Numbered from the stretch's first letter, positions 500 through 53,879 are shown. The stretch: 64,000 nt of DNA from Parcubacteria group bacterium GW2011_GWC1_36_108 (GCA_000991245.1 LBRD01000003.1:6734-70733); one strand, 5' to 3'. Notes: a model not told the origin generated them from the sequence alone. Program-made: numbers and translations.

Positions 500-865
500 T
501 CAATTTTGTTTTGTCTTTGTAATTATTGCTGAAAATATTAGCGTAAGTTCTTGGCATTCCCGCCATAATTCTCTAGACTCGTTACTTACTTCCGAGTCTG
601 CAACAGCAATCATTCTGAGCCAATGCTTGGTCTCCTTGCTTTCTTTTTTGCAAATGCCTAATTTGTGGATAAAGTCTTTTCGAGATTCTGCACCGTCAGC
701 TTCCATATAATTTGCGCCAATACTTGTTCCGCTTCTTACAATTTGACTGATCAGTGGTTTTGTTACTTCGCTTTTGGAAATACATTTAGAAAATTTAATA
801 ATTTTTTCTCCAAAAATTGCTGTACGCTCCTCCAAGTCAAATTTTATTGGTTTTTCATTTGTCAT
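500..865 (-). CDS. four-helix-bundle protein (23S rRNA intervening-sequence protein family)
   Basis: 121 aa. Family-typical pattern IVRSGTSIGANYMEA...SRKDFIHKLGICKKESKETKHWL. Confidence 0.8.
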   Translation of the reverse strand: MTNEKPIKFDLEERTAIFGEKIIKFSKCISKSEVTKPLISQIVRSGTSIGANYMEADGAESRKDFIHKLGICKKESKETKHWLRMIAVADSEVSNESRELWRECQELTLIFSAIITKTKQN

Positions 866-3434: not shown

Positions 3435-3863
3435 TTATTGTTGTGCTTTTTGAGCTTGCTTCAAGGCTTTTGCTGCGAGTCTGGCAGCTTTTTTGGCTTC
3501 TTTGGCTGCGATTCTTTCTGCTTTGATTTTTTGTCTTTCAGCAATTTTAGCTTCTTTTGCTAGTCTTTTTGCTTCTTGTTTTTTCAAACGCTCAGCTTTT
3601 TTGATTTGCTGTGCTAATCTTTTTTCTTCCTGCTTTTTCAAAAGAGCGGCTTTTTTTGCAATTTGCGCTAGTCTTTTTGCTTCTTGTTTGGCTTTGATTG
3701 CTGCCAATCTTTCTGCTTGGCGTGCTTTGTTTGCTGCGAGTCGTTGTTGTTTTTTTGCTTGCGTGGTTGTTTCGGTTGTTGTTGTCGTTTCGTTTGCGCT
3801 AACAAACGTCACTGGGAAAGCAAATGCAACCATAAGGGCAATTGCCACGAGTTTTTTCTTCAT
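3435..3863 (-). CDS. secreted Lys/Ala/Glu-rich coiled-coil repeat protein
   Basis: Start moved to MKKKLVAIALMVAFAFPVTFVSA (signal-peptide-like). Reiterated KRLAQ/AKEAK motifs. The upstream extension in the track has no support. Confidence 0.6.
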   Translation of the reverse strand: MKKKLVAIALMVAFAFPVTFVSANETTTTTETTTQAKKQQRLAANKARQAERLAAIKAKQEAKRLAQIAKKAALLKKQEEKRLAQQIKKAERLKKQEAKRLAKEAKIAERQKIKAERIAAKEAKKAARLAAKALKQAQKAQQ

Positions 3864-4058
3864 TGTTTTTATTTTTAATAAATTACATCTGTTATTATAC
3901 AGCTTTGAAGCGAGAGCCACAAGGGAGTTGTGCACACCCGTCCGCATCGTCACGCGAGCAAGCTCGTTTGCCAGGGTCACATAAAATTTTTTAAATATTG
4001 TCTATAAATCAAATTTGCGCTATACTGGATAGGTAAATATTGAATAAATCAAACAATT

Positions 4059-5008: not shown

Positions 5009-5093
5009 TGTCATTCCCGTGAAAACGGGAATCCAGGACTGAGCCTAACTTGCGCGCAAACCTGGATCCCGGATCTGCTGTCCGGGACGACAC
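5009..5093. mobile_element. MITE-like hairpin element, family A copy 1
   Basis: GTCATTCCCGTGAAAACGGGAATCCAGG...CCTGGATCCCGGATCTGCTGTCCGGGACGAC. Three nested hairpins, with GTCAT / (G)ACGAC termini. Confidence 0.7.
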
Positions 5094-5106
5094 GAGTACA
5101 TGTCGA

Positions 5107-5175
5107 TTTCTTAACGCTCATCACTCGTTTTTTGCCTACGTACTTCATATGGTGCAAAGGGATGCGGGATACAAG
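5107..5175 (+). repeat. mosaic repeat: module C plus tail
   Basis: 5107-5156 matches 6677-6726 (50 nt, 2 mismatches). The tail ggtgcaaagggatgcgggataca matches 9446-9476. Confidence 0.75.
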
Positions 5176-5203
5176 ATATATAATTAGTATAATATTTTAA
5201 ATT

Positions 5204-6529
5204 ATGAAAATTGGAGTTATTGGAACTGGATATGTGGGTAGTGTGACAGGAGCTTGTTTTGCGGAAATGGGGAACACTGTTATTTGCGTGGACAATGATC
5301 AAAAAAAAGTTGATCAGTTTTCTTCTGGCAAAGTTCCACTTCACGAAAAAGGTTTGGATGAATTGGTTTCTCGAAATTTGAAAAACAAAACTTTGACATT
5401 CACGACTGATCTTGAAGATACTTTGAAAAAATCTGACATTATTTTTATCGCTGTTGGGACACCTCCAAATGAAGATGGAAGCGCCGACCTTTCTCACGTG
5501 CTTGGCGTGGCAACCTCAATCGGGCAAATGATGGATCATAAACTTATCATCGTGGACAAATCAACTGTGCCGGTTGGAACTGCTGAAAAAGTTTCCAAAA
5601 ATATCGCTAAAGAGCTTAAGGATAGAGGGGTCGAGATTCCTTTTTCCGTGGTTAGTAATCCCGAGTTTTTGGCGCAAGGAACTGCTGTCAAAGATTTCTT
5701 GGAACCGAGTCGTATTGTTATTGGCGCAGATGATCCAAAAGTAATTGAAACGATGCGCGAACTGTATGAACCTTTTATGCGTCGTGAAGGACGTTTCTTT
5801 TCAATGGATGCAAAAACAGCCGAGATTGTGAAATATGCTTCAAACTGTTTCTTGGCTGCCAAAATTTCTGTGAACAATGAGTTGGCAAACATTTGCTCAA
5901 AGGCAGGAGCTGATTTTGACAATGTGCGCAAAGCGATGGGCGCCGATCCGCGCATTGGAGAACCTTTTATGTATGCGGGTCCCGGTTTTGGTGGATCTTG
6001 TTTTCCAAAAGATGTGAAAGCACTTGTCAAAACAGCCAAGGATTTTGGATATGACGCTGAAATGTTGAAACAAACACTGGGAACAAACGACAAGCAAAAA
6101 TTTGTGTTGTCTCAAATGGTTATTGATGAGCTTGGGGAGGATTTGAAAAACAAAGTTTTTGGTGTTTGGGGATTGGCTTTCAAAGCGGGAACTGATGATA
6201 TGCGCGAATCTTCAGCGCTTACTATTATCAGTGAACTCATCAAAAGAGGAGCCAAAATTCAAGCGCACGATCCAGAAGCAATGAAAATGGCGCAGCGCGA
6301 GGAATATTTTGGCGAAAATTCAAGCATTACATATTTTGAAAATAAATATGATGCACTTAAGGAAGCGGATGCGATGCTTGTTATTACTGAATGGAAAGAA
6401 TTTCGCACACCAGATTTTGATGAGATTAAAAAACTTTTGAAAACTCCTATGATTTTTGATGGCAGGCTTTTGTATGAACCCAAGAAAATGAAAGAAATGG
6501 GATTTGATTATAAATCGATAGGAAGATAA
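5204..6529 (+). CDS. ugd: UDP-glucose 6-dehydrogenase family protein
   Basis: MKIGVIGTGYVGSVTGACFAEMG Rossmann N-terminus, GGSCFPKD catalytic-Cys motif, 441 aa. Confidence 0.85.
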   Translation: MKIGVIGTGYVGSVTGACFAEMGNTVICVDNDQKKVDQFSSGKVPLHEKGLDELVSRNLKNKTLTFTTDLEDTLKKSDIIFIAVGTPPNEDGSADLSHVLGVATSIGQMMDHKLIIVDKSTVPVGTAEKVSKNIAKELKDRGVEIPFSVVSNPEFLAQGTAVKDFLEPSRIVIGADDPKVIETMRELYEPFMRREGRFFSMDAKTAEIVKYASNCFLAAKISVNNELANICSKAGADFDNVRKAMGADPRIGEPFMYAGPGFGGSCFPKDVKALVKTAKDFGYDAEMLKQTLGTNDKQKFVLSQMVIDELGEDLKNKVFGVWGLAFKAGTDDMRESSALTIISELIKRGAKIQAHDPEAMKMAQREEYFGENSSITYFENKYDALKEADAMLVITEWKEFRTPDFDEIKKLLKTPMIFDGRLLYEPKKMKEMGFDYKSIGR

Positions 6530-6726
6530 ACTCATTTCCACATTTCTTTTTCCCGCAAAAAGAAACCTGGAGGAAAGAAAAGCTCGCACCTGATGAAGAT
6601 ACTGTGGCAAAAACTTCACTCTTCACTAAAATTTCTAACCGCCTCCGTCATTTTTGAAAATGACTCCGCGAAGAAATTTCTTAACGCTCATCACTCGTTT
6701 TTCGCCTATGTACTTCATATGGTGCA
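6530..6726 (+). repeat. mosaic repeat: module B (6530-6632), linker, module C (6677-6726)
   Basis: Module B is about 103 nt and nearly identical to 9341-9443. It contains the hairpin TTTCTTTTT-cccgc-AAAAAGAAA and starts 1 nt after the ugd stop. Confidence 0.8.
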
Positions 6727-6823
6727 GATAGGCTCAAAAAAATACAAACAGTTGCAGAATTTGAATGCAAATAAAAAAGACTTAGCGGGTTTTCTCGCTA
6801 AGCCTTTTGTTTATGTTAGGTCA

Positions 6824-7111
6824 CTAAGTCCATACGATTGAGTGACCTGGGTATATTTTTTGAATTTGTTTGATAAAATCCTCCTTTGAAATCGGAACGC
6901 AGAAGCGTTTGATTTTATCTATACCTCCAGAATAAAGAAGTGAAAATCCTGGAATATCAAACAGCGAAGCTTCGTTATGTTTCGTTGAAACATAAAGAAG
7001 AGGCGATCGTTTTGAGACCACAAAATCGTAGTCTTTTTGAAGTAGCGTTTTTTCTGTTGCTGTATCGGAAGCTTCTTTGATAATAATTGTTTTGCTCCTC
7101 CCGTCCTTCAT
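6824..7111 (-). CDS. hypothetical protein
   Basis: Start moved to the ATG preceded by AGGAGGAGGATT (strong SD). 95 aa. Confidence 0.5.
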   Translation of the reverse strand: MKDGRSKTIIIKEASDTATEKTLLQKDYDFVVSKRSPLLYVSTKHNEASLFDIPGFSLLYSGGIDKIKRFCVPISKEDFIKQIQKIYPGHSIVWT

Positions 7112-7121
7112 AATCCTCCTC

Positions 7122-7490
7122 CTATTTTGTGAGATTTGAAGATACAATCATACACACTGCGTTTACGTGCGTGGAAGATACATCAAGGGCAATTTCCTTT
7201 ACTCGCTTGTGTGTTCTGAGTACAAGACTACACGCTCTTTCCTGAACCTTTTTGTCAGAGAGAGCTTTTACGCGCAGAGCCTGCATCATAATTCGTTGAG
7301 CGTGGTCGTCGTCTATCTCTTTCAAGTCGTATTCCTTAAAAGAGGCGATATGTATACTTATGCCAAAGTTAAGTTCAGGATTATCATTCAAAAATTCACC
7401 AACAATTGCGGACACGGATTTAACCGCGGAATCCTTGTTGAAATTTTTGAGTTTTAGCTCCGCTGCTGCGTCAATAGTTGTTCTTTTCAT
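7122..7490 (-). CDS. hypothetical protein
   Basis: Start moved to the ATG preceded by TAGGGGGTAATACG (SD-like). 122 aa. Lies 10 nt upstream of 6824..7111, so probably forms an operon with it. Confidence 0.5.
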   Translation of the reverse strand: MKRTTIDAAAELKLKNFNKDSAVKSVSAIVGEFLNDNPELNFGISIHIASFKEYDLKEIDDDHAQRIMMQALRVKALSDKKVQERACSLVLRTHKRVKEIALDVSSTHVNAVCMIVSSNLTK

Positions 7491-7657
7491 CGTATTACCC
7501 CCTAAGTTTTTAAAGTGCATGGGCACTTTTTGGTATTTCAGCTATTATACACCTAAACGGGCAACGTGTCAATATGGGCGCCATTTTGCCCGCCTGCAAC
7601 GCTGTAGCACTGCGGGCAGGCCCTTGAGAAAGCGGAGAAAAGGTGGTAGGATGTAAT

Positions 7658-7788
7658 AGTTCATAAAGTTTTTAAAGTTCTTAAGGTTTATAAAGTAAAA
7701 TGCAAAAAGTTGTAAGGTTTTTAAGGTTTGTAAAGTTTATAATGTAAAATACAAAAAACTCCAAAGTTTATAAAGTTCATAAGGTAAA
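7658..7788 (+). repeat. 9-bp-period array, three sub-arrays each ending in GTAAAATRCAAAAA
   Basis: gttcataaa gtttttaaa gttcttaag gtttataaa ... read directly. Immediately upstream of four-helix-bundle gene 7794. Confidence 0.75.
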
Positions 7789-7793
7789 ACAAA

Positions 7794-8144
7794 ATGGCGA
7801 AATTTGAGACATTTGAAGATATTGTTGCTTGGCAAAAATCAAGAATTCTTGTAACTGATATTTATCAAGTATTCAGAAGCAGCAAGGACTATTCTTTTCG
7901 AGATCAAATACAGAGAGCTGCAGTTTCAATTATGAATAATATCGCCGAAGGTTATGAAAGAAAAGGAAATAAGGAATTTGCAAAGTTTTTATATATAGCA
8001 AAAGGTTCTTGCGCAGAGGTTCGTTCAATGCTTTATCTCGCTCTAGATTTAAGATATATTAATAGGGAAGAATTTAATAACTTTTCTGAACAATCACTTG
8101 TAATTTCTAAGATGTTATCAAGTCTCATAAAAACATTGTGTTAG
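7794..8144 (+). CDS. four-helix-bundle protein (23S rRNA intervening-sequence protein family)
   Basis: 116 aa. Motifs QIQRAAVSIMNNIAEGYER and FLYIAKGSCAEVRSMLYLA. Confidence 0.8.
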   Translation: MAKFETFEDIVAWQKSRILVTDIYQVFRSSKDYSFRDQIQRAAVSIMNNIAEGYERKGNKEFAKFLYIAKGSCAEVRSMLYLALDLRYINREEFNNFSEQSLVISKMLSSLIKTLC

Positions 8145-8146
8145 GG

Positions 8147-8166
8147 ACTTTAAAAACTTTAAGAAC
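8147..8166 (-). repeat. short inverted 9-mer array (ACTTTAAAA ACTTTAAGA)
   Basis: Reverse complement of the words in 7658-7788. It closes an inverted pair around gene 7794..8144. Confidence 0.55.
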
Positions 8167-8172
8167 TATACT

Positions 8173-9339
8173 ATGCGAATTTTATTCTTCAATTATGAAT
8201 TTCCACCGTTGGGTGGGGGAGCGGGAAATGCTTCTTTTTATTTGTTGCGCGAATATGCAAAAAATTCTGATTTGGAAGTTGATTTTGTGACAGCTTCAGT
8301 TGATGGGCAATATCATCTTTTGAAAATGGGAGAGAATGTTAATATTCATCGACTCCCGATTGGAAAAAATGCTGAAAATATTCATTATCAAACAAAGAAA
8401 GACTTGATTTTATACACTTGGAAAGCATATTGGTTTTCCAGAAAGTTGGCCAAGAAAAATCAATATGACTTGTCGCACTCATTTTTTTCTGTGCCTTGCG
8501 GAGCAATTTCATTGTTACTAAAATGGGAGTTCAAATTGCCATATATTGTTTCACTTCGTGGAAGCGACGTTCCTGGTTATAGTGAGCGATTTGTTGGGCT
8601 TTACAGGTGGATCACGCCGACTATTTTGAAAATTTGGAAAAATGCTTTTTTTGTGGTTGCCAACAGCCAAGGACTAAAAGAATTGGCAGTTAAATCTGAG
8701 CCGAAAAAAGAAATAGGTGTTATTTATAACGGCGTTGACGTCAAAGAATTTGTTGCTGATCCAAGCAAGCGCAATCCTGAGCACTTTACTATTATTTGTG
8801 TTTCACGTGTTACGCCGAGAAAAGGTATTCGTTTTTTGATTCAAGCTTTCAAGATGCTCTCTGGACGTTATGATAATGTGCAGCTTTTGATTGTGGGAGA
8901 TGGTAATGAAAAAAAATCACTTGAAGATTTGGTGCGAAGTCTTGAAATTGAAAACAGAGTTGAATTTGCAGGAGCGATTGATCACACAAATGTATTGGCA
9001 TATTATCAGCGAGCTGATGTTTTTGTGCTTCCGTCGCTTAATGAAGGAATGAGTAATGTGATGCTTGAAGCGTTGGCGGTTGGATTGCCAGTGGTTGCAA
9101 CTGATACGGGCGGTACCAAGGAACTTTTGACTGATAATGTGAATGGTTTGGTTGTTAAAATGAAAGATTCAAATGATTTGGCTGAAAAAATTGAAAAATT
9201 AATCGTGAATGATGAACTCAGAAAAACAATGAGTTTGGAGAGTCGCAAATTGGCGGAAAGGATGAGTTGGGAAAAAGTGGCAGGAGAATATGTTGAATTG
9301 TATAAAAAAATAGATAATTCGAGGAAGATGAAGGGGTAA
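8173..9339 (+). CDS. GT4 glycosyltransferase
   Basis: FPPLGGGAGN N-terminus. C-terminal LPSLNEGMSNVMLEALAVGLPVVATDTGG (E-x7-E region). Confidence 0.85.
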   Translation: MRILFFNYEFPPLGGGAGNASFYLLREYAKNSDLEVDFVTASVDGQYHLLKMGENVNIHRLPIGKNAENIHYQTKKDLILYTWKAYWFSRKLAKKNQYDLSHSFFSVPCGAISLLLKWEFKLPYIVSLRGSDVPGYSERFVGLYRWITPTILKIWKNAFFVVANSQGLKELAVKSEPKKEIGVIYNGVDVKEFVADPSKRNPEHFTIICVSRVTPRKGIRFLIQAFKMLSGRYDNVQLLIVGDGNEKKSLEDLVRSLEIENRVEFAGAIDHTNVLAYYQRADVFVLPSLNEGMSNVMLEALAVGLPVVATDTGGTKELLTDNVNGLVVKMKDSNDLAEKIEKLIVNDELRKTMSLESRKLAERMSWEKVAGEYVELYKKIDNSRKMKG

Positions 9340-9340
9340 G

Positions 9341-9476
9341 ACTCATTTCCACATTTCTTTTTCCCGCAAAAAGAAACCTGGAGGAAAGAAAAGCTCGCAC
9401 CGGATGAAGATACTGTGGCAAAAACTTCGTTCTTCACTAAAATTGGTGCAAAGGAATGCGGGATGCGGAATACAAA
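9341..9476 (+). repeat. mosaic repeat: module B (9341-9443) plus tail
   Basis: Near-identical to 6530-6632, starting 2 nt after the GT4 stop. The tail matches 5151-5175. Confidence 0.8.
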
Positions 9477-15550: not shown

Positions 15551-17344
15551 ATGAATAATCCAATAGATAAAGAGTCTTTGAAGTCTTTGGTTGGGAGCAG
15601 ATTTTTTGTTGGAGCAATCTTGATTGCGATTTTGGCAGTTGGTGTTTTTTTGCGCGCATATAACTTTTCTGACTGGCAACATTTTGAACTTGATCAATCT
15701 CGCGATGCAAAGGTTATAGATTTGGCGGTGGAAAACGGAGTGGGGGATCTTCCTCTTTTGGGACCAAAGGCAGCGGGGTCATTTTTGCGTCTCGGTCCAA
15801 TATTTTATTATTTCGGTTATGTGAGCGCAAAAGTATTTGGTAACACGCCTTCTGGGATTGCTGTCATTTCACTCATTTTTTCTTGTTTAACGCTGCCCCT
15901 GTTTTATTTGTTTGTCAGAAGATTTTTTTCAAAAAAAATAGGACTTATGCTTCTAGGAGTTTTTTCCGTTTCAATTTTTCTTGTTCTGTACTCACGTTTT
16001 TCATGGAATCCTAATAATTTGCCATTTTTCATTTTGGGTGCACTTTATGGTCTCCTTCGTGCAACGGATGAGAATGAAAAAAGAAAAGGCTGGTGGTTGA
16101 TTGTAGGAGTTGTTTCTTTGACTATTGCAACTCAACTTCACTTTGTGGCTTTTTTGGGCTTGCCGATGATTGCCGTCGCGTATCTTCTAATAAAAAGACC
16201 TTTAATAAACTGGAAATATTGGCTGGCTTCTATCGCATGCATTGTTTTTTTGTATATTCCTTCGATAATAAATGATTTCAAGACAGGTGGTTCAAATATT
16301 ATTGAATTTGAAAAAGTGTTCGCAAAAACATCCACCAAGGGCGAGCATACTCTTGTTGAAAAAATAATAAGAAACATCGACAAGAGTTCGGCTGGATATG
16401 TCTTGCTGATAAGTGGAAATTCACAGGCCGAATTGCCAAAGGTGAAGATTCCAAGAATACGACCAATTTTTACATGTGATGAGGATTGCAAAAAAGGTGT
16501 CCCAATGGGAATTTTTTCACTATTCTTTGCTATTATTGGAAGTGCACTTTTGGGTTGGAATATTTTCAAAACAAAAGAAACTTCGCGCAGAGATTTTTTG
16601 ATCATCGTGGCTATTTGGGTATTGGTTACGCTGGCACTTTTTACTCCGATTTCATATGATATGGCTCCAAGATTCTTTCTGCTGGTTGCTCCGATCCCAT
16701 TTGTTTATTTGGGGCTTATTTTGGATTTTTTTGAAAAAAGAAAAGCCAGTGTTCTTTCTTGGGTTTTCGTTTTGATTCTCTTGGCTTCAAATGGCTGGCT
16801 TGTTAAAGAAAGATTTAGCGAACTTGCAAATGCTCCCGTTAAAGAATTTGAGATATCTTCGGACAAAATTCTCAAAGAAAACGAACGAGTAACCCTTGAG
16901 CAACAGCTTCTGATTACCAAATATATTGAAAGTATTTATAATCAAAACAACTTTCCAGTTTATGTTAATAGTGAGGCATTTTATCGCAGATCATTTTTGT
17001 ATCATCTGGAACAACGTTTGATAGTTCGCGATGATTTTCGCAATACCAGAAGTGTTTATTCTGAGGGAAATTATTTTTTGGTGTATCCATCTTCTTCAAC
17101 TGTGGAAAAAATTTATGAAAATTATCAGGATAAATATGATATTGCTGAAATCAAGGAATTTGGCACGCTTAGAGTTGTGCGCTTGCTTCCAAAATTGCAA
17201 ATGATAACAGCGGTGCGTCAGGAATTTGCTCCAGCAAGAAAACCAATCAGCGCTCCTGGCGTGCCAGTGCGTTGTCGTTGGAATGAAATTTTTTCCCAAT
17301 GTAATAGTGACGGAACGGAGGCGGAGGATGAAAGTAGTTTATAA
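15551..17344 (+). CDS. GT-C family membrane glycosyltransferase (ArnT-like)
   Basis: FLRAYNFSDWQHFELDQSRD...LLGPKA...GPIFYY, paralogous to the N-terminus of 10433..13147. Confidence 0.7.
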   Translation: MNNPIDKESLKSLVGSRFFVGAILIAILAVGVFLRAYNFSDWQHFELDQSRDAKVIDLAVENGVGDLPLLGPKAAGSFLRLGPIFYYFGYVSAKVFGNTPSGIAVISLIFSCLTLPLFYLFVRRFFSKKIGLMLLGVFSVSIFLVLYSRFSWNPNNLPFFILGALYGLLRATDENEKRKGWWLIVGVVSLTIATQLHFVAFLGLPMIAVAYLLIKRPLINWKYWLASIACIVFLYIPSIINDFKTGGSNIIEFEKVFAKTSTKGEHTLVEKIIRNIDKSSAGYVLLISGNSQAELPKVKIPRIRPIFTCDEDCKKGVPMGIFSLFFAIIGSALLGWNIFKTKETSRRDFLIIVAIWVLVTLALFTPISYDMAPRFFLLVAPIPFVYLGLILDFFEKRKASVLSWVFVLILLASNGWLVKERFSELANAPVKEFEISSDKILKENERVTLEQQLLITKYIESIYNQNNFPVYVNSEAFYRRSFLYHLEQRLIVRDDFRNTRSVYSEGNYFLVYPSSSTVEKIYENYQDKYDIAEIKEFGTLRVVRLLPKLQMITAVRQEFAPARKPISAPGVPVRCRWNEIFSQCNSDGTEAEDESSL

Positions 17345-17392
17345 AGTTTGTAAAGTTATAAAGTTCATAAAGTTTATAAAGTTCATAAAGTT
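17337..17392 (+). repeat. 9-bp-period array (GTTTATAAA/GTTCATAAA x6)
   Basis: Direct reading. It generates the fake KFIKFIKFIK N-terminus of track ORF 17226. Confidence 0.75.
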
Positions 17393-17399
17393 AAAAAAT

Positions 17400-18926
17400 A
17401 TGAAAAAGACATTTCTTATCTTGTTTGCCATCATAATTCTGGGTGCTTTTTTGCGCTTTTATAAATTGGGAGAACTTTCTTTTGTGGCGGATGAATTTTT
17501 GGATATGAATTCTTCCTATGCTTATGCTCAAACTGGAACTTGGCAATCCTGGGATTTTAATCGTGGAGTTGTTAATGTGGAAAATGAATTTGCACCGCGC
17601 GATGAAAGAGCATGGCCATATAAGATTCAAGTTGCCAAACTGTTTGGTTTTTTTGCTCCGACTGAAGAGGTGGCAAGGAGTATTAGTGCGGTGTGGGGAA
17701 TCTTGAGTATTATCCTAATTTTTTTCGTGGCAAAATATTTTACTAGGAAAAATTCAATCGGACTTCTCAGTGCATTTTTGTTTGCAATAAGTGTCAGCGG
17801 AATCATTTTTGACAGACGTCTTCGAATGTATGCAATGTTCTTCCCATTTTTTCTGCTTTTCTCTTGGTTGACGTATAAATTTTTTGAGGAATCTTATGGA
17901 GGCAAGCTCAGGGTTTTTAAATATGTAAATGAAAAAATAGGTGTAAATTTGAAATATATCCTGCCAATGCTTCTGTCAGGATCGATGAGTCTGAAGATTC
18001 ATGATTTGACGGTCAGTATGGTTGCTATCTTTACTACATATGTCTTTATTATGACAACCAAGACTTTCTTGGAAAAAAAGACATTCATTTGGAATAAATA
18101 TTCTGTGACATTAAGCGTTGTCTTGGTCGCTGCTGCAGGAATTTTTACTTTTGCATCTGAAAAGATTGGAATGTATGCAGCTGGTATAAAATTTTTCAAC
18201 GACAATTTTAGTTATTTTTCAATAGTTACTTCGGACTATAGCCATCCATTGTTGGCACTTTTGTTTTTTGTTGCCGGTATTTATTATCTGGCGGTGCATA
18301 AAAAACTTTCCAAGGAGGGAATATGGCTGGCAGTTTCTTTTTTGGTTCCGCTTTTAATGGCAGTATTTTTGTGGAGGAGAAATGCGGGCGCCCAATATAT
18401 TTTCTTTGCTCAGTCTTTTGCTATTATCTTGATTGCATCTGGTGTTTACGGTGCAGCAAAATTTTTCAAAAATAATCTCGAGACTTTTTCTGCAAAAAAA
18501 GTATATTTCGTGACCATTGCCTTATCTCTGATGCTTTTGCCAAACTACGCATATTTTTTTCAGGAGAACAACGCTTACAGCCAGACTTCAGCAGCTGAAA
18601 ATCCGAATTATCGAAGCATCTTCACATATTTCAAGAAGAAAAAAATCGATGGCGATGTTCTGATAACAAGAAATTTTCGAAACTATTATTGGAGTGGACA
18701 AAATGTGAAAGTGATTGACTTTGGTGGGGAATTGGCTGAAGAAAAATTTTCATTAGCCCAACTTACAAATGTCGTGAATGAAAATAAGACAGGTTGGGTA
18801 ATTCTTTCCGACAATGATGACCGCTACATTTCAAATGAGGCTTCTGTTTATATGCAAGAAAATATGACCAAGATAAATGATATTGCAGTGCGAGGAAACG
18901 TGCTGGTTTACAGATGGGGGATGTAA
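17400..18926 (+). CDS. GT-C family membrane glycosyltransferase (GT39/GT83-like)
   Basis: Start moved to MKKTFLILFAIIILGAFLRFYKLGE. Polytopic. Confidence 0.7.
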   Translation: MKKTFLILFAIIILGAFLRFYKLGELSFVADEFLDMNSSYAYAQTGTWQSWDFNRGVVNVENEFAPRDERAWPYKIQVAKLFGFFAPTEEVARSISAVWGILSIILIFFVAKYFTRKNSIGLLSAFLFAISVSGIIFDRRLRMYAMFFPFFLLFSWLTYKFFEESYGGKLRVFKYVNEKIGVNLKYILPMLLSGSMSLKIHDLTVSMVAIFTTYVFIMTTKTFLEKKTFIWNKYSVTLSVVLVAAAGIFTFASEKIGMYAAGIKFFNDNFSYFSIVTSDYSHPLLALLFFVAGIYYLAVHKKLSKEGIWLAVSFLVPLLMAVFLWRRNAGAQYIFFAQSFAIILIASGVYGAAKFFKNNLETFSAKKVYFVTIALSLMLLPNYAYFFQENNAYSQTSAAENPNYRSIFTYFKKKKIDGDVLITRNFRNYYWSGQNVKVIDFGGELAEEKFSLAQLTNVVNENKTGWVILSDNDDRYISNEASVYMQENMTKINDIAVRGNVLVYRWGM

Positions 18927-20717: not shown

Positions 20718-21305
20718 TTATGCTATCTGGGATTTTATAATGCTAAATATTTCTTCTTTATCTTTATTGCCGTCTACTATTTTTAAATTCCAGACAGTTG
20801 CTGCTTGGTCGAGAAGCGCTTTTTTCTTGTTTAAATATTCCAATCCTTGATCTGGCACGCGGTCACGTTGCATTATTTTTTCTGGAGAGGTGTTGAGATA
20901 AAAAGCAAAATCGGGAGTAGGAATTAGGTGGTAGGAATTAGGTGGTAGGGGGGAATTTTGAAGGTATAAAATATTAATAATGTTGTCGTAGAAATAGCGG
21001 TCGGAAAGAATGTAGTCGTAGCCGGAGTTACGTAGCTTGTTACGTAGCAAAACAAAACGCAGCAGGTCAATGTGCAGCGCAACTTTGCGCAGTTGGATTT
21101 GCAGCCAACCAGCCTTTGTTACACTTTTTGTTTCCTGTTGACCGTTGATTGTTGATTGTTGATTGTTAAGAACATTGGCGATTGAAAACTGGACAGCGTG
21201 AAAATAAAAAACTTTCTTGCCTTGTGATTCAAGATAATTTTTCAATAAATTTATTTGGGTCGATTTGCCGCTGCCGTCTAAACCTGAGATTGAAATTATT
21301 TTCAC
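20718..21305 (-). CDS. thymidylate-kinase-like nucleotide kinase carrying two in-frame tandem-repeat insertions
   Basis: GTG start. P-loop GLDGSGKST and an LSDRYFYD (DRY) motif. Repeats at 20917-20953 and 21144-21167. Confidence 0.6.
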   Translation of the reverse strand: MKIISISGLDGSGKSTQINLLKNYLESQGKKVFYFHAVQFSIANVLNNQQSTINGQQETKSVTKAGWLQIQLRKVALHIDLLRFVLLRNKLRNSGYDYILSDRYFYDNIINILYLQNSPLPPNSYHLIPTPDFAFYLNTSPEKIMQRDRVPDQGLEYLNKKKALLDQAATVWNLKIVDGNKDKEEIFSIIKSQIA

Positions 21306-21306
21306 A

Positions 21307-21389
21307 AAAGTTTATAAGGTTCATAAAGTTCTTAAGGTTCATAAAGTGTTTTTGTATTTACTTTATAAACTTTATAACTTTATAACTTT
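21307..21389. repeat. palindromic 9-bp-period array with loop GTTTTTGTATTT
   Basis: Forward words 21307-21346, inverted words 21360-21389. Confidence 0.75.
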
Positions 21390-21396
21390 TTACTAT

Positions 21397-22896
21397 TTAG
21401 TACATTATTACTGCCACTGGTTGCATTTTGGCGACAATATGTGCGACGCCGTTGGCTTCAACTCCTTTGATCACTTCATCAATATTTTTATATTTGGCGC
21501 TGTCTTGGTTGATGACGATTGAGGACTGGGCATTGTAAAGTCTAACACCTTTTTCTTCCATTTTGGCAAAAAGTTCTTCCTTGTTGGAAATGCTTTTTTC
21601 GTTGTTGTTTTTTCCTTTGCCGGTTCCGTGTGGTGCAGAATAAAAACTTTGATCGTTTCTGTCAGTGCCGACACAGATGTATGCATCAGTGCTCATTGAA
21701 GAGGGGATAAATGCTGGTTCTCCTGTTTCTTTATAAATCGGATGGTGCGACATTTTTGCAGGACCAAAGGCGCGCGAAGTGTTGGAACGATGAATCATCA
21801 CATCTTTTCCGAAATGCTCCTCCTTGGTGATGGAAATGTGCGGCAGGTCATAAATTAAATCCATTTCAGGGTCGCGGCCGAGAATTTTTTTGATAGCCTG
21901 CGAAATGTTGTGCGTGATGACAGCTCGGTTGGCTGTTCCAAAATTGCTTGCAGCTGCTCGGGCGTTCATATACATTTCGCCATCTTCTCCGTTGGCATCA
22001 TATTTCAAAAGCGAATCATCTTTGGTCATATGCAGCTTTATTTTTTTCTGCATCTTTTTGTAAACATCTTTTTTGCGAGAACTGAATGTGAGGCGACCAA
22101 GCGCAACCATAAGAGCTTGCGAAAGATGTTCAGCTTTTTTGGCTGTGTGAGTATACATTGTGTATTGGCCAAGAATGCCACTTCCGGTGTGAATCATAAA
22201 AAGATATTGGCCCTTTTTAATTCCAAATTTTTCTGCCATCTCAGCATCAACAATGTCTCCAACTTTCATTAAGTCAAGAAAGTGATTGCCAGCAGCGCCA
22301 AGAACTCCCAATCGATATTTCGCAAAGTTTAAATATAGTTTCGGGATGACATCAAAAATATCTTGTCGGGTCATTTCTTTTTCAAAAAAACTTCCTCCAC
22401 TCTGGGTGTTTTCCAATTCATTTTTGGTGGTAATTCCAAGATGTTTGATGATGGCCTTTGTGCCTTGACGGCAGATGTCCACCACGACATTGAAGGGAAC
22501 TTTTGTGCCGACAAATTTCTTGGTGGGAACAACCGAAACTAATTCTTGAAATAGCTTATGAATTTCTTCCGGCGAAATGTTTTCATCGCTAAGATTTGTT
22601 TTGACAAGTCGCATTCCGCAATTAGGATCAGAGTCATTAACTTGCGGGAGAATATATTTTTCACTGGCGATTGTTGTGCCAGCAGCATTTTTTCTTCCTG
22701 GCTTGGAACAAACATCTGGCATAGCGACGGTGCTTCTAAAAAAAGTGTCTTTATTTGAAGCGATGTCTTCCACTTGAGAGAATGTTTCTTCTTCTGGCAA
22801 AAGATTTTGATTCATAAAAAAAAGTGCCGGCACAGACATTTTGTCGGTTTTAAATTCTTTTATGTTCTCAGAAAGTGATTTCGTTTCGTATTTCAT
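21397..22896 (-). CDS. rtcB: RtcB-family RNA ligase (divergent)
   Basis: Ordered RtcB-like blocks: MPDV, PNCGMR, GNHFLD, HTGSG, FGTANR, HRSNTSRAFGP, SAPHGTGKG. Confidence 0.7.
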   Translation of the reverse strand: MKYETKSLSENIKEFKTDKMSVPALFFMNQNLLPEEETFSQVEDIASNKDTFFRSTVAMPDVCSKPGRKNAAGTTIASEKYILPQVNDSDPNCGMRLVKTNLSDENISPEEIHKLFQELVSVVPTKKFVGTKVPFNVVVDICRQGTKAIIKHLGITTKNELENTQSGGSFFEKEMTRQDIFDVIPKLYLNFAKYRLGVLGAAGNHFLDLMKVGDIVDAEMAEKFGIKKGQYLFMIHTGSGILGQYTMYTHTAKKAEHLSQALMVALGRLTFSSRKKDVYKKMQKKIKLHMTKDDSLLKYDANGEDGEMYMNARAAASNFGTANRAVITHNISQAIKKILGRDPEMDLIYDLPHISITKEEHFGKDVMIHRSNTSRAFGPAKMSHHPIYKETGEPAFIPSSMSTDAYICVGTDRNDQSFYSAPHGTGKGKNNNEKSISNKEELFAKMEEKGVRLYNAQSSIVINQDSAKYKNIDEVIKGVEANGVAHIVAKMQPVAVIMY

Positions 22897-24259: not shown

Positions 24260-24346
24260 TGTCATTCCGGACTTGATCCGGAATCCCGAGTTTTAGCTTA
24301 TAAGCCGTTCTGCTGCGAGAGATCCTGAAACAAGTTCAGGATGACA
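24260..24346. mobile_element. MITE-like hairpin element, family A copy 2
   Basis: GTCATTCCGGACTTGATCCGGAATCC...GATCCTGAAACAAGTTCAGGATGAC. Confidence 0.7.
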
Positions 24347-29016: not shown

Positions 29017-29247
29017 CTATTGTTTTTCGATTATTAATTTAGGATCAACACAATTGAGATCACATTTGGCATTCTGAGTTCCTTGTTTGATAAATTCTTT
29101 TGAACAATCGTTTAATTTCTGTTGACAAACAGATTTGCTTTCATTGAAATAATTCAAATTAACTTCATATCCAAAATAGGGAAGCGTGAAATATGCGACA
29201 ACTGCGATTCCTGCGAGCCAGATTGCAAATTTAATGAGATGAAACAT
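29017..29247 (-). CDS. small membrane protein with four Cys
   Basis: 76 aa, N-terminal TM. Its stop abuts the start of 28065..29015. Confidence 0.5.
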   Translation of the reverse strand: MFHLIKFAIWLAGIAVVAYFTLPYFGYEVNLNYFNESKSVCQQKLNDCSKEFIKQGTQNAKCDLNCVDPKLIIEKQ

Positions 29248-29256
29248 AGAAAAGTC

Positions 29257-29342
29257 AAAAAGTTTTTAAGGTTCTTAAGGTTTTTAAAGTATAAGCAGGT
29301 GTATGCCTTATGAACTTTATAACTTTATGAACTTTATAACTT
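29257..29342. repeat. palindromic 9-bp-period array
   Basis: Forward words 29257-29290, inverted words 29307-29342. Confidence 0.75.
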
Positions 29343-29349
29343 GTTTTTA

Positions 29350-30633
29350 TTATCGTCCGATTCCTTTATAGATTATACCACGTTTTTGAATTTCAGCCTT
29401 ATCGAGACAATTTTTTCCGTCAGTGATAACTTTGATGTTATTTTGTACAAATTTTTCAACAGGAATATCAATAAATTCTTGATGATTGGTAGCAAGTAGG
29501 ACAGCTTCACTTTTTTCCAATAGATCATCAATATTCTTAGCACTTGACATTGCAGGTACGAAAGGATCAAAGGTAACAACCTTGGCTCCATTTTTTTCCA
29601 AAAGCTTAATCAGTTCAAATGAAGGACTTTCTCTGAGGTCTCCAACGTTGGCTTTGTATGATAATCCTAATACTCCAACAGTTGTTCCTTTGAGAGATTT
29701 TTCAATTTCATTAAGTTGATCTTGCAAAAGTTCGATTGTGTATTCCGGCATACTGTTGTTTATTTTTCTGGCAGCTCGCAAAAACACGTGGTCGAAATCG
29801 TTTTCTTTGGCTTTTTCAATTAGGTAATATGGATCAACTGGAATGCAGTGACCACCAACTCCGCAGCTTGGCCAGTGTGCCAAAAATGAAAACGGTTTGG
29901 TGGATGCACCTTTAATCACGTTGGTAACATCTATATCCATTCGCTCAAAAGACCTGGCCAACTCATTTACAAAGGCAATATTGATATCACGGAAAGAGTT
30001 TTCGGTAATTTTCACAGCTTCTGCTTCTCGGATTGTTGCCATTGGCATAATTGGGGCATCCACAATGCTTTCATAAAACTCTTGTGAACGTTTCAAGCCA
30101 ATTTCATCAAAAGATCCAACCACACGCGGAATGTTTGAAACATTCCATTTTGGATCGCCGGGATTAACACGCTCTGGGCAGTGTGAAATAAAAACATCCT
30201 TACCAACTTCATAGCCTGCTTTTTCAAAAATTGGTTTGACGACTTCCTCACTAACTCCGGGATTGACGGTTGATTCAAGAATGACAAGCGAACCCTTCTT
30301 CATATTCTTAGCAACCGTTTCTGATGCACTTATAACTGGACTAAGATCTGGAAAATATTTATCATCTACTGGGGTTGGAACACATATGATATGGATATCA
30401 CACTGCGACATTAATTTTGGATCGCTGAAAACGTTTATTTTGACCTTTGGTAAGAGTTCCTCTAAAAATTCCTCCTTAAAAGGGGATATGCCTTGCTTGA
30501 TTAAATCTAATTTTTTCTGGTCATTATCAAAACCATATACTTCGTAACCCTTATTTGCGGCAACTGCGGCTAATGGTAAGCCCACATACCCCATTCCAAC
30601 AACGCACACTACTGGTTTTTCATTTTGATTCAT
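29350..30633 (-). CDS. nucleotide-sugar dehydrogenase (UDP-ManNAc/UDP-Glc dehydrogenase family)
   Basis: VCVVGMGYVGLPLA Rossmann N-terminus, GGHCIPVDP catalytic Cys. Confidence 0.85.
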   Translation of the reverse strand: MNQNEKPVVCVVGMGYVGLPLAAVAANKGYEVYGFDNDQKKLDLIKQGISPFKEEFLEELLPKVKINVFSDPKLMSQCDIHIICVPTPVDDKYFPDLSPVISASETVAKNMKKGSLVILESTVNPGVSEEVVKPIFEKAGYEVGKDVFISHCPERVNPGDPKWNVSNIPRVVGSFDEIGLKRSQEFYESIVDAPIMPMATIREAEAVKITENSFRDINIAFVNELARSFERMDIDVTNVIKGASTKPFSFLAHWPSCGVGGHCIPVDPYYLIEKAKENDFDHVFLRAARKINNSMPEYTIELLQDQLNEIEKSLKGTTVGVLGLSYKANVGDLRESPSFELIKLLEKNGAKVVTFDPFVPAMSSAKNIDDLLEKSEAVLLATNHQEFIDIPVEKFVQNNIKVITDGKNCLDKAEIQKRGIIYKGIGR

Positions 30634-37442: not shown

Positions 37443-37575
37443 TTAGGACTTACGCATTTTCTCAACGATTTCTTTTTTGGCACGTTTTTGACCCAAGACT
37501 ATGGTTAAAAACTCAAAGAATTGCTGTCGCAATAATTGGCTAAAAAAGAAATGTTTCGAAATGCGTAACCTCTAA
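37443..37575 (+). mobile_element. TIR element D, full copy (133 bp)
   Basis: TTAGGACTTACGCATTT...AAATGCGTAACCTCTAA termini. About 85% identical to 49102-49238. Confidence 0.8.
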
Positions 37576-37594: not shown

Positions 37595-38881
37595 ATGTCA
37601 GATTTTCAGCAGTCGAAAGATTTTCCGGAAGAATTTCAACTTTATAAAAAAAGAATGTTGAAATATTTCGTCCAAATATTTGCAATTATCTTGTTGGGCG
37701 GGGGAGTATTCTGGATGGGTTTTGAAAATGGAAAGAATAGTGGGCAATTAGAAGCTCCAATTTCAATTGAAGGTGCAATGTTTAAAAATAAAGATCAAGG
37801 TGCTGATGGCGCCATCGATTTTTCTTTGTTTTGGAGCGTCTGGGACTTGCTCAAGAGCAAATATGTTGATGCGGGAAGTTTGGATGCGAAAAAGCTATAC
37901 TACGGAGCTATAAAGGGTATGCTTGCAGCCACGGGAGATCCGTATACAACATTTCTTGATCCTATTGAAAATCAAAAATTTGGCGAGGATATTTCCGGAA
38001 ATTTCGAAGGAATTGGAGCTGAACTTGGAATAAAGAGTGGAATCCTTACGGTTATTGCACCACTTCAGGGAACACCAGCGGAAAAAGCGGGGATTCGCAG
38101 TGGTGACAAGATAATAAAAATTGATGGCAAATCTTCTGGCGATATGACAATTGAAGAAGCTGTCGATCATATTCGTGGGAAAAAGGGAACCAGTGTGGTG
38201 CTAACTGTTTATCGAGAAGGAAATGCTGATGCGCAGGATATTACCGTGCAAAGAGGTATAATCAATGTTAAGAGTGTGACTTTTGAGGTTAAAGAAAATA
38301 ATATTGCCTATATAAAAATTACGCGTTTTGGAGATGACACGAACAAGCTTTTTGCAGAAGCTATTAAAAAAGTTTCTACTGCAAAAAATCAGGGACTTGT
38401 GATTGATTTGCGGAATAATCCTGGTGGATATCTTGAAACATCAATAGATGTTGCCAGCAAATTATTGCCAAAAGGTAAAATCGTGGTTATTGAAGAGAGT
38501 GGCAACAAGAGTCAAAAGAAAATGTATACCCGAGGAGGTGATGTGGCCAGCGAGATTGAAACTGTGGTGCTTATCAACGAGGGAAGTGCTAGTGCCTCAG
38601 AAATTTTGGCAGGAGCGCTTAAAAATAATCGCAGCAATATAACCTTGGTTGGAAAAAAATCATTTGGCAAAGGATCGGTGCAGGAATTTATTGAAATGCC
38701 ACAAGGCACAGCTGCCAAAATAACAGTTGCGCGTTGGCTCACACCTGATGGCACGCAAATCAATGAGCAAGGCATCAAACCTGACAATGAAGTTGAGTTT
38801 AGTGACGAAGACTATGAAAATAATCGCGATCCTCAATTGGATGAAGCATTGAAGATATTGAAAGAAAAACTTTCTTTATAA
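37595..38881 (+). CDS. S41 C-terminal processing peptidase with PDZ domain
   Basis: GIRSGDKIIKIDG (PDZ), GSASASEILAGAL, FGKGSVQ. Confidence 0.85.
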   Translation: MSDFQQSKDFPEEFQLYKKRMLKYFVQIFAIILLGGGVFWMGFENGKNSGQLEAPISIEGAMFKNKDQGADGAIDFSLFWSVWDLLKSKYVDAGSLDAKKLYYGAIKGMLAATGDPYTTFLDPIENQKFGEDISGNFEGIGAELGIKSGILTVIAPLQGTPAEKAGIRSGDKIIKIDGKSSGDMTIEEAVDHIRGKKGTSVVLTVYREGNADAQDITVQRGIINVKSVTFEVKENNIAYIKITRFGDDTNKLFAEAIKKVSTAKNQGLVIDLRNNPGGYLETSIDVASKLLPKGKIVVIEESGNKSQKKMYTRGGDVASEIETVVLINEGSASASEILAGALKNNRSNITLVGKKSFGKGSVQEFIEMPQGTAAKITVARWLTPDGTQINEQGIKPDNEVEFSDEDYENNRDPQLDEALKILKEKLSL

Positions 38882-38934: not shown

Positions 38935-38987
38935 TGCGTTTCAAACTCATTTCCACATTTCTTTTTCCCGTAAGCGGAATATAAATA

Positions 38988-40848: not shown

Positions 40849-40930
40849 TGTCATTCCCGTGAAAACGGGAATCCAGGACTGAGTCTGACTGAAGAGCTAA
40901 ACTGGATCCTGAAACAAGTTCAGGATGACA
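40849..40930. mobile_element. MITE-like hairpin element, family A copy 4
   Basis: TGTCATTCCCGTGAAAACGGGAATCCAGG...GGATCCTGAAACAAGTTCAGGATGACA. Confidence 0.75.
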
Positions 40931-41444: not shown

Positions 41445-42263
41445 TTAAAATGGGCTTTTGATGTTTCTAAGCATTGGATTAGTTACTTTCGTGTATATCT
41501 GTGTTGTTCTTATATTAGCATGTCCAAGCAATTCTTGTACATATCGCACATCAACCCCATTTTCAAGCAGATGAGTGGCAAAAGAATGTCTAAGTGAGTG
41601 AAAAGTGGCTTCTTTTTGAACCTCAGCTTTTTGCAGAGCATTTTCAAAAACTTTTTGTGCGCTACGCTCATCTAATTTTCCTCCGCGATTACTGGCAAAA
41701 ACATAATCATTTAAATCTCTAAGCGCAATCATATTAAGCAATTGTGGTTTCAATTTTTCTGAAATTACACTTATTCTATCCTTGTTTCCTTTAGCTCCTT
41801 TTATATGAATTGTTAATTCGTCTAAATTGATGTCTTTAATCTTTAAATTTATTGCTTCACTGACGCGAAAACCTGCGCCATAGGAAAGGGAAATGAGCAG
41901 CTTATGTTTCGGATTGCTTATGGAATCAATCATTCTTCCAATCTCATCCCTAGAAAGTACTACGGGCAATTTGCTGGCAGTTTTGGCAAATTTGATATCA
42001 ATTTCAATATTATTTTTAAAAACTTCTCTATAAAAGTATTTAATAGCTTGAAGATGCACATTCATCGTCTGTGAGGATTGTCCACGAGCTTGTTTTTCTA
42101 ATAAATATTTCTTAATTACTTCAATTTCCGGTTCGCGCTTAATAATTTTAATGTATTTGAAATATTCATTCAGACAAGACAAATAACTCTCAATTGTCCT
42201 TGGACTGTAATTTCGAAGTTTCAGTTCGTTTTTGATTTTTTCCAGCAACTCTTGGAGATTCAT
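41445..42263 (-). CDS. tyrosine site-specific recombinase (Xer/IntI-like, 272 aa)
   Basis: YSPRTIESY N-terminal SAM-like domain; KLPVVLSRDE; catalytic R (GFRVSE), K (KGNKDR), HSLRHSFATHL and LGHANIRTTQIYTKV (Tyr). There is no long insertion between the K and HxxR regions. Confidence 0.85.
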   Translation of the reverse strand: MNLQELLEKIKNELKLRNYSPRTIESYLSCLNEYFKYIKIIKREPEIEVIKKYLLEKQARGQSSQTMNVHLQAIKYFYREVFKNNIEIDIKFAKTASKLPVVLSRDEIGRMIDSISNPKHKLLISLSYGAGFRVSEAINLKIKDINLDELTIHIKGAKGNKDRISVISEKLKPQLLNMIALRDLNDYVFASNRGGKLDERSAQKVFENALQKAEVQKEATFHSLRHSFATHLLENGVDVRYVQELLGHANIRTTQIYTKVTNPMLRNIKSPF

Positions 42264-49101: not shown

Positions 49102-49238
49102 TTAGGACTTACGCACTTTCTCAACGATTTCTTTTTTGGCACGCTTTTGGATAAATACTCACTATCCAAAAACTCAAAGAGTCGCTGTCGCCAACAATTG
49201 GCCAAAAAAGAAATGTTTCGAAATGCGTAACTTCTGAA
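49102..49238 (+). mobile_element. TIR element D, full copy
   Basis: TTAGGACTTACGCACTT...AAATGCGTAACTTCTGAA. Track ORF 49080..49274 lies inside it. Confidence 0.8.
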
Positions 49239-49326: not shown

Positions 49327-49866
49327 ATGCAAAAGAAAAAAATATTTGTTGAAATAGAGGTTCCCGGACAGTTAAAAAGACGGTTGGCTCAGATTATAGC
49401 CAAGTGGTCTGATTTGCCGATCAAATGGATGAAAGAGGAAAATTTGCACATCACTGTGTCTTTTGTGGGATATGTTGATGAAAGCGTGCTGCCTGAAATT
49501 TGTCAAAAAGTCAGAGTGGCTGTGGAAAACTTTGAAGCTTTTGATTTGGAATTTGACCGCATCGAACTTGGACCAAATCCTGCTGATCCCAAAACAGTTT
49601 GGCTCACGGGACAGCCTTGCAGTGAGCTTGGCGTGCTTAATGAACAAGTCGAGCGAGCTCTTGGAATGAGACCGGAAACACACAAGGAATTTCGACCGCA
49701 CATCACGCTGGGGCGCATTCGCAAGCTGAAATGGGATGAACTTGTCGAAAAGCCTGAAATTTCTGAGAAAATTAATGTTTCAATGACGGTGGACAGTCTT
49801 TCGATTATGGAAAGTAAAGGCGGGGGAGCGGAATATGTTTCGTTGGAAGAATGTTCGCTGGCGTAA
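49327..49866 (+). CDS. thpR: RNA 2',3'-cyclic phosphodiesterase (2H phosphoesterase, ThpR/LigT)
   Basis: Two HxT/S motifs: LHITVSF and PHITLGR. Confidence 0.8.
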   Translation: MQKKKIFVEIEVPGQLKRRLAQIIAKWSDLPIKWMKEENLHITVSFVGYVDESVLPEICQKVRVAVENFEAFDLEFDRIELGPNPADPKTVWLTGQPCSELGVLNEQVERALGMRPETHKEFRPHITLGRIRKLKWDELVEKPEISEKINVSMTVDSLSIMESKGGGAEYVSLEECSLA

Positions 49867-49870
49867 AATA

Positions 49871-49906
49871 GTTCGTAAGGTTATAAGGTTTGTAAAGTTC
49901 ATAAAG
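49871..49906 (+). repeat. 9-bp-period array (4 words) abutting the next start codon
   Basis: gttcgtaag gttataag gtttgtaaa gttcataaa gta-ATG. Confidence 0.65.
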
Positions 49907-49908
49907 TA

Positions 49909-53809: not shown

Positions 53810-53879
53810 TGTCATTCCCGTAAAAACGGAAATCTGGAACTAGGCATCACTCTGGATCCCAGTTAAGCCGAAGATGACA
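53810..53879. mobile_element. MITE-like hairpin element, family A copy 6 (short)
   Basis: TGTCATTCCCGTAAAAACGGAAATCTGG...CTGGATCCC...GATGACA. Confidence 0.65.

Follow-up and report, generated by a model that had tools for sequence, protein, structure and literature searches.

Why do the same short sequences recur, in different combinations, between the genes of a single surface-glycan cluster? The question is raised by a 64-kb stretch of DNA (hereafter the window) of Parcubacteria group bacterium GW2011_GWC1_36_108, from a Moranbacteria population of the Rifle aquifer in which 13 contigs encode an identical ugd protein. An initial annotation described three repeats in this cluster, modules B and C and a tail. 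Our comparison of assemblies indicates that B, a linker, C and the tail are parts of one non-coding element of ~225 nt and not independent modules. This B/C element probably represents a new, dispersed and non-autonomous family of structured intergenic repeats of Moranbacteria, similar in type to BOX and ERIC.

One element instead of independent modules

By self-comparison of the window, module B forms direct repeats at 6530-6633 and 9341-9444 (family D7, 97% identity, spacing 2811 nt), and module C occurs at 5106-5156 and 6676-6726 (family D16, 96% identity). The 20-nt tail GGTGCAAAGGRATGCGGGAT was found in the window only at 5151 and 9445 when up to 3 mismatches were allowed. Exact matches to the first 26 nt of B lie at 6530, 9341 and 38945, with 0 expected from 100 shuffles, and none of the three repeats is expected by chance in shuffled sequence; their existence and placement in the initial annotation were thereby confirmed. 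The same holds for its truncated third B start near 38945, which lies 3' of the terminator hairpin of an S41 peptidase gene (37595-38881, confirmed by Pfam). The stop codon of ugd ends at 6529, so that B starts with the first base after it, and the stop of the GT4 gene ends at 9339, with B starting at the second base. A covariance model of the B/C family searched against the window returned three loci (156, 31 and 18 bits; next best E = 0.08), and neither this model nor a more sensitive self-comparison found extra B/C copies within the 64 kb. We refer to the copy upstream of ugd as copy 0, to that following ugd as copy 1 and to that in the spacer between the GT4 and LPG_synthase_TM genes as copy 3 (Table 1).

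Three independent assemblies of the same strain (L001, L002 and L004), with 100% identical flanks, have 87 nt more in the GT4-LPG_synthase_TM spacer than the window, and their spacer consists of uninterrupted B, a 43-nt linker, C and tail. The sibling strain L022/L023 (ugd 98% identical) contains a complete copy in 3 of 3 spacers, namely between GT2 and ugd, after ugd, and between GT4 and the LPG synthase gene. We took the unit to be B, linker, C and tail because the four are contiguous in the three same-strain assemblies and in all three spacers of L022.

Relative to L001 and L002, the window was 100.000% identical over 16.4 kb with the exception of two gaps, one of 87 nt at 9444, comprising the linker and right arm of copy 3, and one of 91 nt at 2565, which takes away the right half of one member of a different hairpin repeat, family D. 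Each of these losses corresponds to the 3' half of a long hairpin, and both junctions are without microhomology. The B+tail junction of the window at 9444/9445, in which CACTAAAATT is joined to GGTGCAAAGG, was found in 0 of 69 fetched loci, including the three same-strain assemblies that cover the spacer. The 87-nt loss is probably an assembly artefact and not a rare variant, and the B+tail locus, listed in the initial annotation as one of three recombinant loci, was seen in this assembly only. At copy 0, the C+tail locus, B and linker are replaced by an unrelated repeat of ~82 nt (repeat A) and a 13-nt joint. These stand in for the 5' two-thirds of the copy and had escaped the earlier account. 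The A/C junction is common to all assemblies of the window's strain, whereas at the same site the copy is complete in the sibling strain L022. Other contigs of the strain (L003, L005 and the 1422-nt contig L006) end ~30 nt into B or inside a four-helix-bundle gene, and the repeats therefore fragment assemblies.

Structure and covariation

The element is composed of a 5' hairpin (P0), a long imperfect hairpin with a rod of ~33 bp and a variable tip, and a tail of 2-7 tandem heptamers of the form NRRATRC. P0, a hairpin of its own formed by the 5' part of B, is kept in two sequence versions. In P1 (~25 bp) the left arm belongs to B and the right arm to C, with GCACCGGATGAAGATACTGTGGCAAAAAC pairing with GTTTTTTGCCTACGTACTTCATATGGTGC; it encloses two conserved unpaired strands, the A/T helix P2 (CTAAAATTT paired with AAAATTT..TA) and a replaceable apical hairpin, the linker, which forms the tip. 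RNAalifold and a hand-specified structure were concordant.

Across 32 distinct copies, 94.9% of 1056 cells were paired, compared with 36-46% when the partner was slid by 1-3 columns. Changes on both sides were observed in 11 pairs and 63 cells, values reached by 0 of 500 shuffles. One subfamily, for example, has GCGCC/GGCGC in place of GCACC/GGTGC and CAAGCGC/GCGCTTG in place of CAAAAAC/GTTTTTG. Pairing is maintained by compensatory substitutions, alike on both strands: G-U cells numbered 11 (~1%) and A-C cells, which are G-U on the other strand, numbered 13. The apical hairpins have unrelated sequences with the pairing kept (CGTC/GACG, CGCT/AGCG, TTTTT/AAAAA and GTCATTTT/AAAATGAC) and are missing from some copies, and the 28 distinct linkers, of 30-48 nt, leave the outer stem undisturbed. 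More diverged copies found by the covariance model retain CUAAAAUU and UUAACGYUCA.

There is no tandem repetition in the centre of the element, and copy number varies only in the 3' heptamers. Heptamer arrays were considered as a general genome feature or a target and this was rejected, as in the window they are confined to the two tails; in the relative L024 a tail-like stretch follows ugd without the body of the element. A hammerhead ribozyme, proposed from CUGAUGA in the left arm, was also rejected, since CGGAUGA is the form in most copies and the motif is base-paired to the right arm.

An open frame through copies 1 and 3, between which the 87-nt difference is in frame, would allow the repeats to be read as a small protein gene present several times (MKILWQKL...FLNAHHSFFAYVLHMVQ). 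This reading is barely credible given that no open reading frame is conserved, with both the open frame and the start codon varying between copies: there is no common frame for the longest open stretch across 40 copies, the ATG is missing from whole subfamilies, and the GC-rich subfamily is frameshifted by a 1-nt indel. Moreover, the substitutions are compensatory in the stems, not synonymous.

Distribution and nature of the element

Searches with the 22-nt core of C identified 15 loci in 7 metagenome-assembled genomes, which come from different sites and carry the label Moranbacteria, Moraniibacteriota or Parcubacteria. A gapped pattern running from the last part of B into the first part of C identified 42 further metagenome loci; the two sets hold at least 40 distinct copies. 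The covariance model added more diverged copies in the same loci, some of them adjacent and in opposite orientation, with three in one contig of 7.7 kb. The modules that the initial annotation had linked to rearrangement beside ugd are thus dispersed through many Moranbacteria. With respect to the flanking genes, 10 copies were sense (++) and 13 antisense (--), while 10 lay between convergent genes and only 1 of 34 between divergent ones. Accordingly, the element is enriched downstream of genes and almost never occupies spacers with divergent promoters. An orthologous spacer holds a copy in some genomes and lacks one in others.

The window gave no match to Rfam at gathering thresholds, and the best match of one full copy had E = 9.4; a tRNA/tmRNA search found none. 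No transposase Pfam domain was found in the window's open reading frames of 110 or more residues, and no mobilising enzyme was found in this window-only search. The sole recombinase of the window is a tyrosine recombinase of 272 residues (41445-42263, minus strand; Phage_integrase, E = 2e-41), which lies beside def and fmt and is probably a housekeeping Xer enzyme. The near-equal G-U and A-C cells, the use of both orientations and the lack of a reading frame, an Rfam family and a transposase fit a selfish, non-autonomous repeat in which the hairpin is important on either strand. Our literature search returned no relevant paper on small intergenic repeats in candidate-phyla-radiation bacteria or Moranbacteria.

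As selfish DNA, the element would be inserted in new copies between genes by an enzyme whose gene lies elsewhere, or would spread through gene conversion. Such an enzyme would probably recognise, at the DNA level, the hairpin together with the conserved loop strands, and copies may survive chiefly downstream of genes, where they would do little harm. Within an operon, as at GT4/LPG-synthase, a transcribed copy would fold into a stable intercistronic stem-loop, with possible attenuation, processing or stabilisation of the mRNA. Because the tail of copy 3 ends 5 nt 5' of the LPG-synthase start codon, an RNA-level effect is plausible where the element is transcribed.

Several observations weigh against a dispersed selfish repeat. 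The orientation counts use crude calls of open reading frames, and orthologous duplicates are included among the loci. Several copies lie directly against a stop codon (ugd, GT4, L009, L029 and L046), which could point to an RNA or 3'-end function and not to neutral tolerance. The ends of the element carry no terminal inverted repeats, all inverted repeats being internal (P0, P1 and P2), and no target-site duplication was detected among 13 copies (mean longest flank match of 4.08 nt versus 4.00 +/- 0.26 for mismatched flanks), with the 3' end being imprecise; classical cut-and-paste mobility of the kind known from miniature inverted-repeat transposable elements (MITEs) is therefore unsupported. 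No clean filled/empty pair of near-identical sites was found, so that the exact ends and the target are undefined. The ends are further blurred because the spacer at 63253 of the window holds an array of 9-nt repeats at the place of the element in relatives. Part of the invariance of TTAACGCTCATCACTCG and CTTCRCTARAATT reflects the way in which copies were collected. Finally, single-sequence folding energies were unexceptional (z = -1.2 and -1.6), and the structural support rests on the covariation.

The same strong covariation and conserved unpaired strands could belong to a multi-copy structured non-coding or cis-regulatory RNA, such as a protein-binding rod, a terminator, an attenuator, an RNase site, an mRNA stabiliser or a small RNA with an internal promoter. 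Several copies begin 0-2 nt after stop codons, copy 3 lies inside an apparent operon and must be transcribed given the position of its tail, and a promoter-like GTGGCA-N17-TAAAAT is found in the conserved left arm and P2. We nevertheless regard a regulatory RNA as unlikely. The element has no orientation preference relative to flanking genes, which are functionally unrelated, and orthologous spacers of close relatives lack it. Its G-U cells are rare and show no excess on either strand, which sets it apart from typical functional RNAs, and it has no Rfam family. In the reverse strand, UUUUCUUU comes after the rod at a distance of 4-5 nt, but this U-tract past the stem is confined to the antisense strand, and a terminator scan flagged none in the element itself.

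Copies in the window

The coordinates of the copies and their parts are given in Table 1. The degenerate stretch that follows copy 1 precedes a bidirectional terminator (6775-6808) and is homologous to the tail-like stretch after ugd in L024. The stub is located where the S41 peptidase and rhodanese genes converge, in the spacer separating them.

Table 1. Positions of the B/C element copies, their structural parts and the associated repeat A in the 64-kb window
Feature	Position	Strand	Remarks
Copy 1, complete body	6530..6726	+	directly after ugd stop; covariance match 156 bits, E = 7e-41, over 6573-6735
Copy 1, 5' hairpin P0	~6535-6573	+	structure prediction
Copy 1, P1 left arm	6586-6614	+	followed by conserved loop strand CTTCACTCTTCAC
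Copy 1, P2 5' strand	6627-6634	+	structure prediction
Copy 1, apical hairpin	6647-6664	+	structure prediction
Copy 1, P2 3' strand	6674-6683	+	followed by conserved loop strand ACGCTCATCACTC
Copy 1, P1 right arm	6697-6725	+	structure prediction
Copy 1, degenerate tail-like stretch AAATACAAACAGTTGCAGAATTTGAATGCAAAT	6727..6771	+	read from sequence; putative tail
Copy 3, GT4/LPG_synthase_TM spacer	9341..9476	+	P0, left arm and P2 5' strand 9341-9444, then heptamer tail 9445-9476; 30.9 bits
Copy 0, upstream of ugd	5106..5179	+	only right arm C 5106-5156 and heptamer tail 5151-5179 left
Repeat A and 13-nt joint	5009..5105	+	A = 5009-5092, TGTCATTCCCGTGAAAACGGGAATCC...GACGACA; self-comparison families D3, D6
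Stub	38945..38987	+	first 26-28 nt of element, then putative tail GCGGAATATAAATAC

The ugd-GT4 interval

The initial annotation proposed that the two B copies bound a 2.7-kb block (6633-9340) that is either an insertion or prone to deletion, the mosaic having arisen by recombination among three loci. The B copies are indeed nearly identical direct repeats, ugd-GT4 material is absent in some relatives, and the interval is unstable, with the sibling GT4 sharing only 57.6% protein identity while the flanks, B included, are 97-100% identical. Gene order in relatives argues otherwise. In four contigs with a ugd 87-89% identical to that of the window (L067, L068, L069 and the P0007 contig), the order is GT2-ugd-GT4, the spacers measure 31-139 nt and no B/C element is present, with LPG_synthase_TM next after GT4 in L068 and L069; their orthologous GT4 proteins are 68% (L068/L069) and 48% (L067) identical to that of the window. 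The idea of a 2.7-kb insertion fails, and GT4 is, on this comparison, the ancestral neighbour of ugd, because relatives keep GT2-ugd-GT4-LPG-synthase without any copy. In a further relative, W4 (ugd 90% identical), homologues of both small minus-strand genes follow ugd without B, and its metagenome-assembled genome has at least 4 element copies elsewhere and none at the three spacers.

The material added in the lineage of the window spans 6530-8172 and not 6633-9340, and comprises an element copy, two small genes and a four-helix-bundle cassette. No deletion between B copies was found among the 6 of 13 similar ugd-bearing contigs that were listed. The breakpoints of GT4-allele divergence lie inside the open reading frame and not in B, and the B+tail arrangement is absent from the other same-strain assemblies. 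Relatives thus carry genes of the segment without flanking B modules, and B/C copies are widespread; by the initial annotation's own standard these results refute its proposal, and we consider a B-bounded block very unlikely.

The succession of three co-oriented genes in L022, each followed by a copy, is also suggestive of integron-like attC sites after gene cassettes (GT2, ugd and GT4), as are the imperfect inverted repeat, the variable centre and the start right after stop codons. Reading of the sequence found no RYYYAAC/GTTRRRY core sites at the ends on either strand, and at ~225 nt the element exceeds the length of attC sites. In addition, relatives have the same gene order without the element, and copies occur in both orientations relative to genes. 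The window's only tyrosine recombinase is the 272-residue Xer-like protein, with no IntI-type integrase seen in the window, and this explanation seems extremely unlikely.

The GT4 genes of the sibling strains (window 8173-9339 and L022 10938-12104) have 55-77% nucleotide identity, whereas the first ~80 nt and last ~65 nt of the open reading frame and both flanks are 97-100% identical. This pattern between co-occurring siblings indicates allele replacement through recombination in the surface-glycan locus. The identical sequence flanking the replacement includes an element copy. It might accordingly be asked whether the element is the DNA or RNA substrate of an undescribed mobilisation or recombination system in candidate-phyla-radiation bacteria, a suggestion that we consider quite unlikely. 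A trans-acting protein would recognise the heptamer array and the loop strands CGCTCTTCRCT and CGCTCATCACT, which are conserved, near-identical and opposite each other across the rod, and the dispersed, highly conserved copies could act as portable homology for swapping glycosyltransferase alleles between co-occurring strains. The protein could be an HUH-type enzyme, an IS110-type enzyme or a member of the abundant group of Avd-like four-helix-bundle proteins. A template/variable-region pair of a diversity-generating retroelement, suggested by the Avd-like neighbour gene, was rejected, as the linkers differ wholesale and not at adenines.

The two small genes (6824-7114 and 7122-7490, both on the minus strand) had no Pfam match. 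Both have homologues after ugd in L024, and in L067 a single homologue is placed between GT2 and ugd. Between siblings, the first gene has 67-76% nucleotide identity, with flanks of 98-100%. The pair may be a mobile two-gene module.

Four-helix-bundle genes (PF05635, Avd-like) were found at 500-865 (minus strand) and 7794-8144 (plus strand), the latter between inverted arrays of 9-nt units (TAAAGTTYA). Such arrays occur at 3206, 7637-7796, 17317-17407, 21290-21408, 29233-29362, 49866-49918 and 63248-63375, some without a gene. The GT2/ugd spacer of relatives holds a cassette with a different unit sequence (L024 and L068) or an empty array (L069). The four-helix genes with their 9-nt arrays look like a separate mobile cassette.

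Remodelling and exchange between copies

The initial annotation inferred recombination from the mosaic loci, and to this extent it was right, as exchange does occur: the copy in L046 combines a left arm from one subfamily with a right arm from another, and the same A+C joint recurs at four unrelated sites, the composite of A, joint and C being shared by the window with L007, L013 and L019. Its assumption that B, C and tail are free modules did not hold. In the spacer orthologous to window 63253, a complete copy is present in L061 and L017 and a 9-nt-repeat array in the window, while L007 has a B stub followed by A, C and tail with a joint identical to window 5093-5105. Since L007 and the window share the same A+C joint, the A+C composite spreads or converts other copies. 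The B+linker+C, B+tail and C+tail patterns of the window arise jointly from internal loss, nested insertion of small repeats (A and GC palindromes) and exchange between copies.

GC-rich palindromes (e.g. CCTGCCTGCCGGCAGGCAGG and CCTGCCCGCAATGC...GCAGGCGGG) were nested at one fixed point of P0, between GGAGGA and AAGAAA, in the 5' hairpin region of L020, L022, L033, L054 and L056. A similar palindrome lies at 7586-7625 of the window, upstream of the four-helix gene.

Comparison with known repeat systems

By analogy of architecture, the element appears closest in kind to pneumococcal BOX, and also to the ERIC, Correia, BIME and NIME repeats. ERIC (IRU) and Correia sequences, from enterobacteria and Neisseria, are imperfect palindromes of 100-150 nt in transcribed intergenic regions, with internal indel variants and possible effects on mRNA processing or promoters (summarised in the background section of PMC3049150). 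The B/C element is likewise an imperfect intergenic palindrome with internal insertion/deletion variants, but is longer and carries a heptamer tail; Correia elements differ further in their 26-bp terminal inverted repeats and TA target duplication, neither of which was found here.

The features of BOX (boxA-boxB(n)-boxC, Streptococcus pneumoniae) are likewise described in PMC3049150. Both are composite, modular, non-coding intergenic repeats in which the outer modules pair into a long stem-loop and the central module is dispensable or variable, and both are enriched downstream of genes, clustered or nested with other small repeats, and of strain-dependent length (PMC3049150). In contrast to BOX, however, the centre of our element is a replaceable hairpin and not a tandem array of one module (boxB), a variable heptamer run follows the hairpin, and there is an extra 5' hairpin. 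No insertion sequence with matching ends is known for the element, and its host is a small-genome lineage of the candidate phyla radiation; the likeness is architectural, with no sequence relation expected.

As in BIME/REP and NIME regions, the spacers are intergenic mosaics of short families side by side, here B/C, A, D, GC palindromes and 9-nt arrays. REPs, however, are 20-40 nt long and tied to RAYT transposases (looked for within the window only), whereas B/C is one large structured element. MITEs are similarly short, non-coding, multi-copy, presence-polymorphic and non-autonomous, but their terminal inverted repeats and target-site duplications were not found in the element.

Other repeats of the window and implications

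Within the window, at least 4 interleaved repeat families remodel the spacers of a surface-glycan gene cluster, and genomes of the candidate phyla radiation are roughly 1 Mb in size. If transcribed, the B/C element may alter expression of neighbouring glycosylation genes. Repeats of this kind break or distort assemblies, as illustrated by the two hairpin-half losses absent from the three other same-strain assemblies, and apparent rearrangements at hairpin repeats call for checking against reads. The covariance model provides a marker for tracking Moranbacteria strains and a lead towards the enzyme responsible for spreading the element.

Repeat A (~82 nt; TGTCATTCCCGTGAAAACGGGAATCC...GGATGACA) occurs at 5009-5092, 40849-40930, 50655-50736 and 53810-53880, with a fragment at 24321-24346, and is present in relatives too. 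It has matching ends and two internal hairpins, and in one of these the loop (TCTGCTG) is similar to the apical loop of the B/C element. The 5' hairpin of repeat A, ATTCCCG-N6-CGGGAAT, resembles the dRS3 motif of Neisseria, ATTCCC-N8-GGGAAT.

Family D, a hairpin element (TTAGGACTTACGCA ... TGCGTAACTTCT), is found at 2470-2565, 37443-37573 and 49102-49235, and at 6750-6900 of L067. The copy at 2470 is without the 91-nt right half seen in L001 and L002, a loss like that at 9444. Compared with L022, positions 1-2565 of the window are 100.0% identical with zero mismatches, and identity falls to 87-99% from 2566, exactly at this D repeat; the drop suggests a recombination breakpoint at a repeat. 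Finally, an open reading frame on the minus strand (3435-3980) contains four copies of a 54-nt period (3491-3689), encoding an alanine/lysine-rich repeat (KQEAKRLA...).

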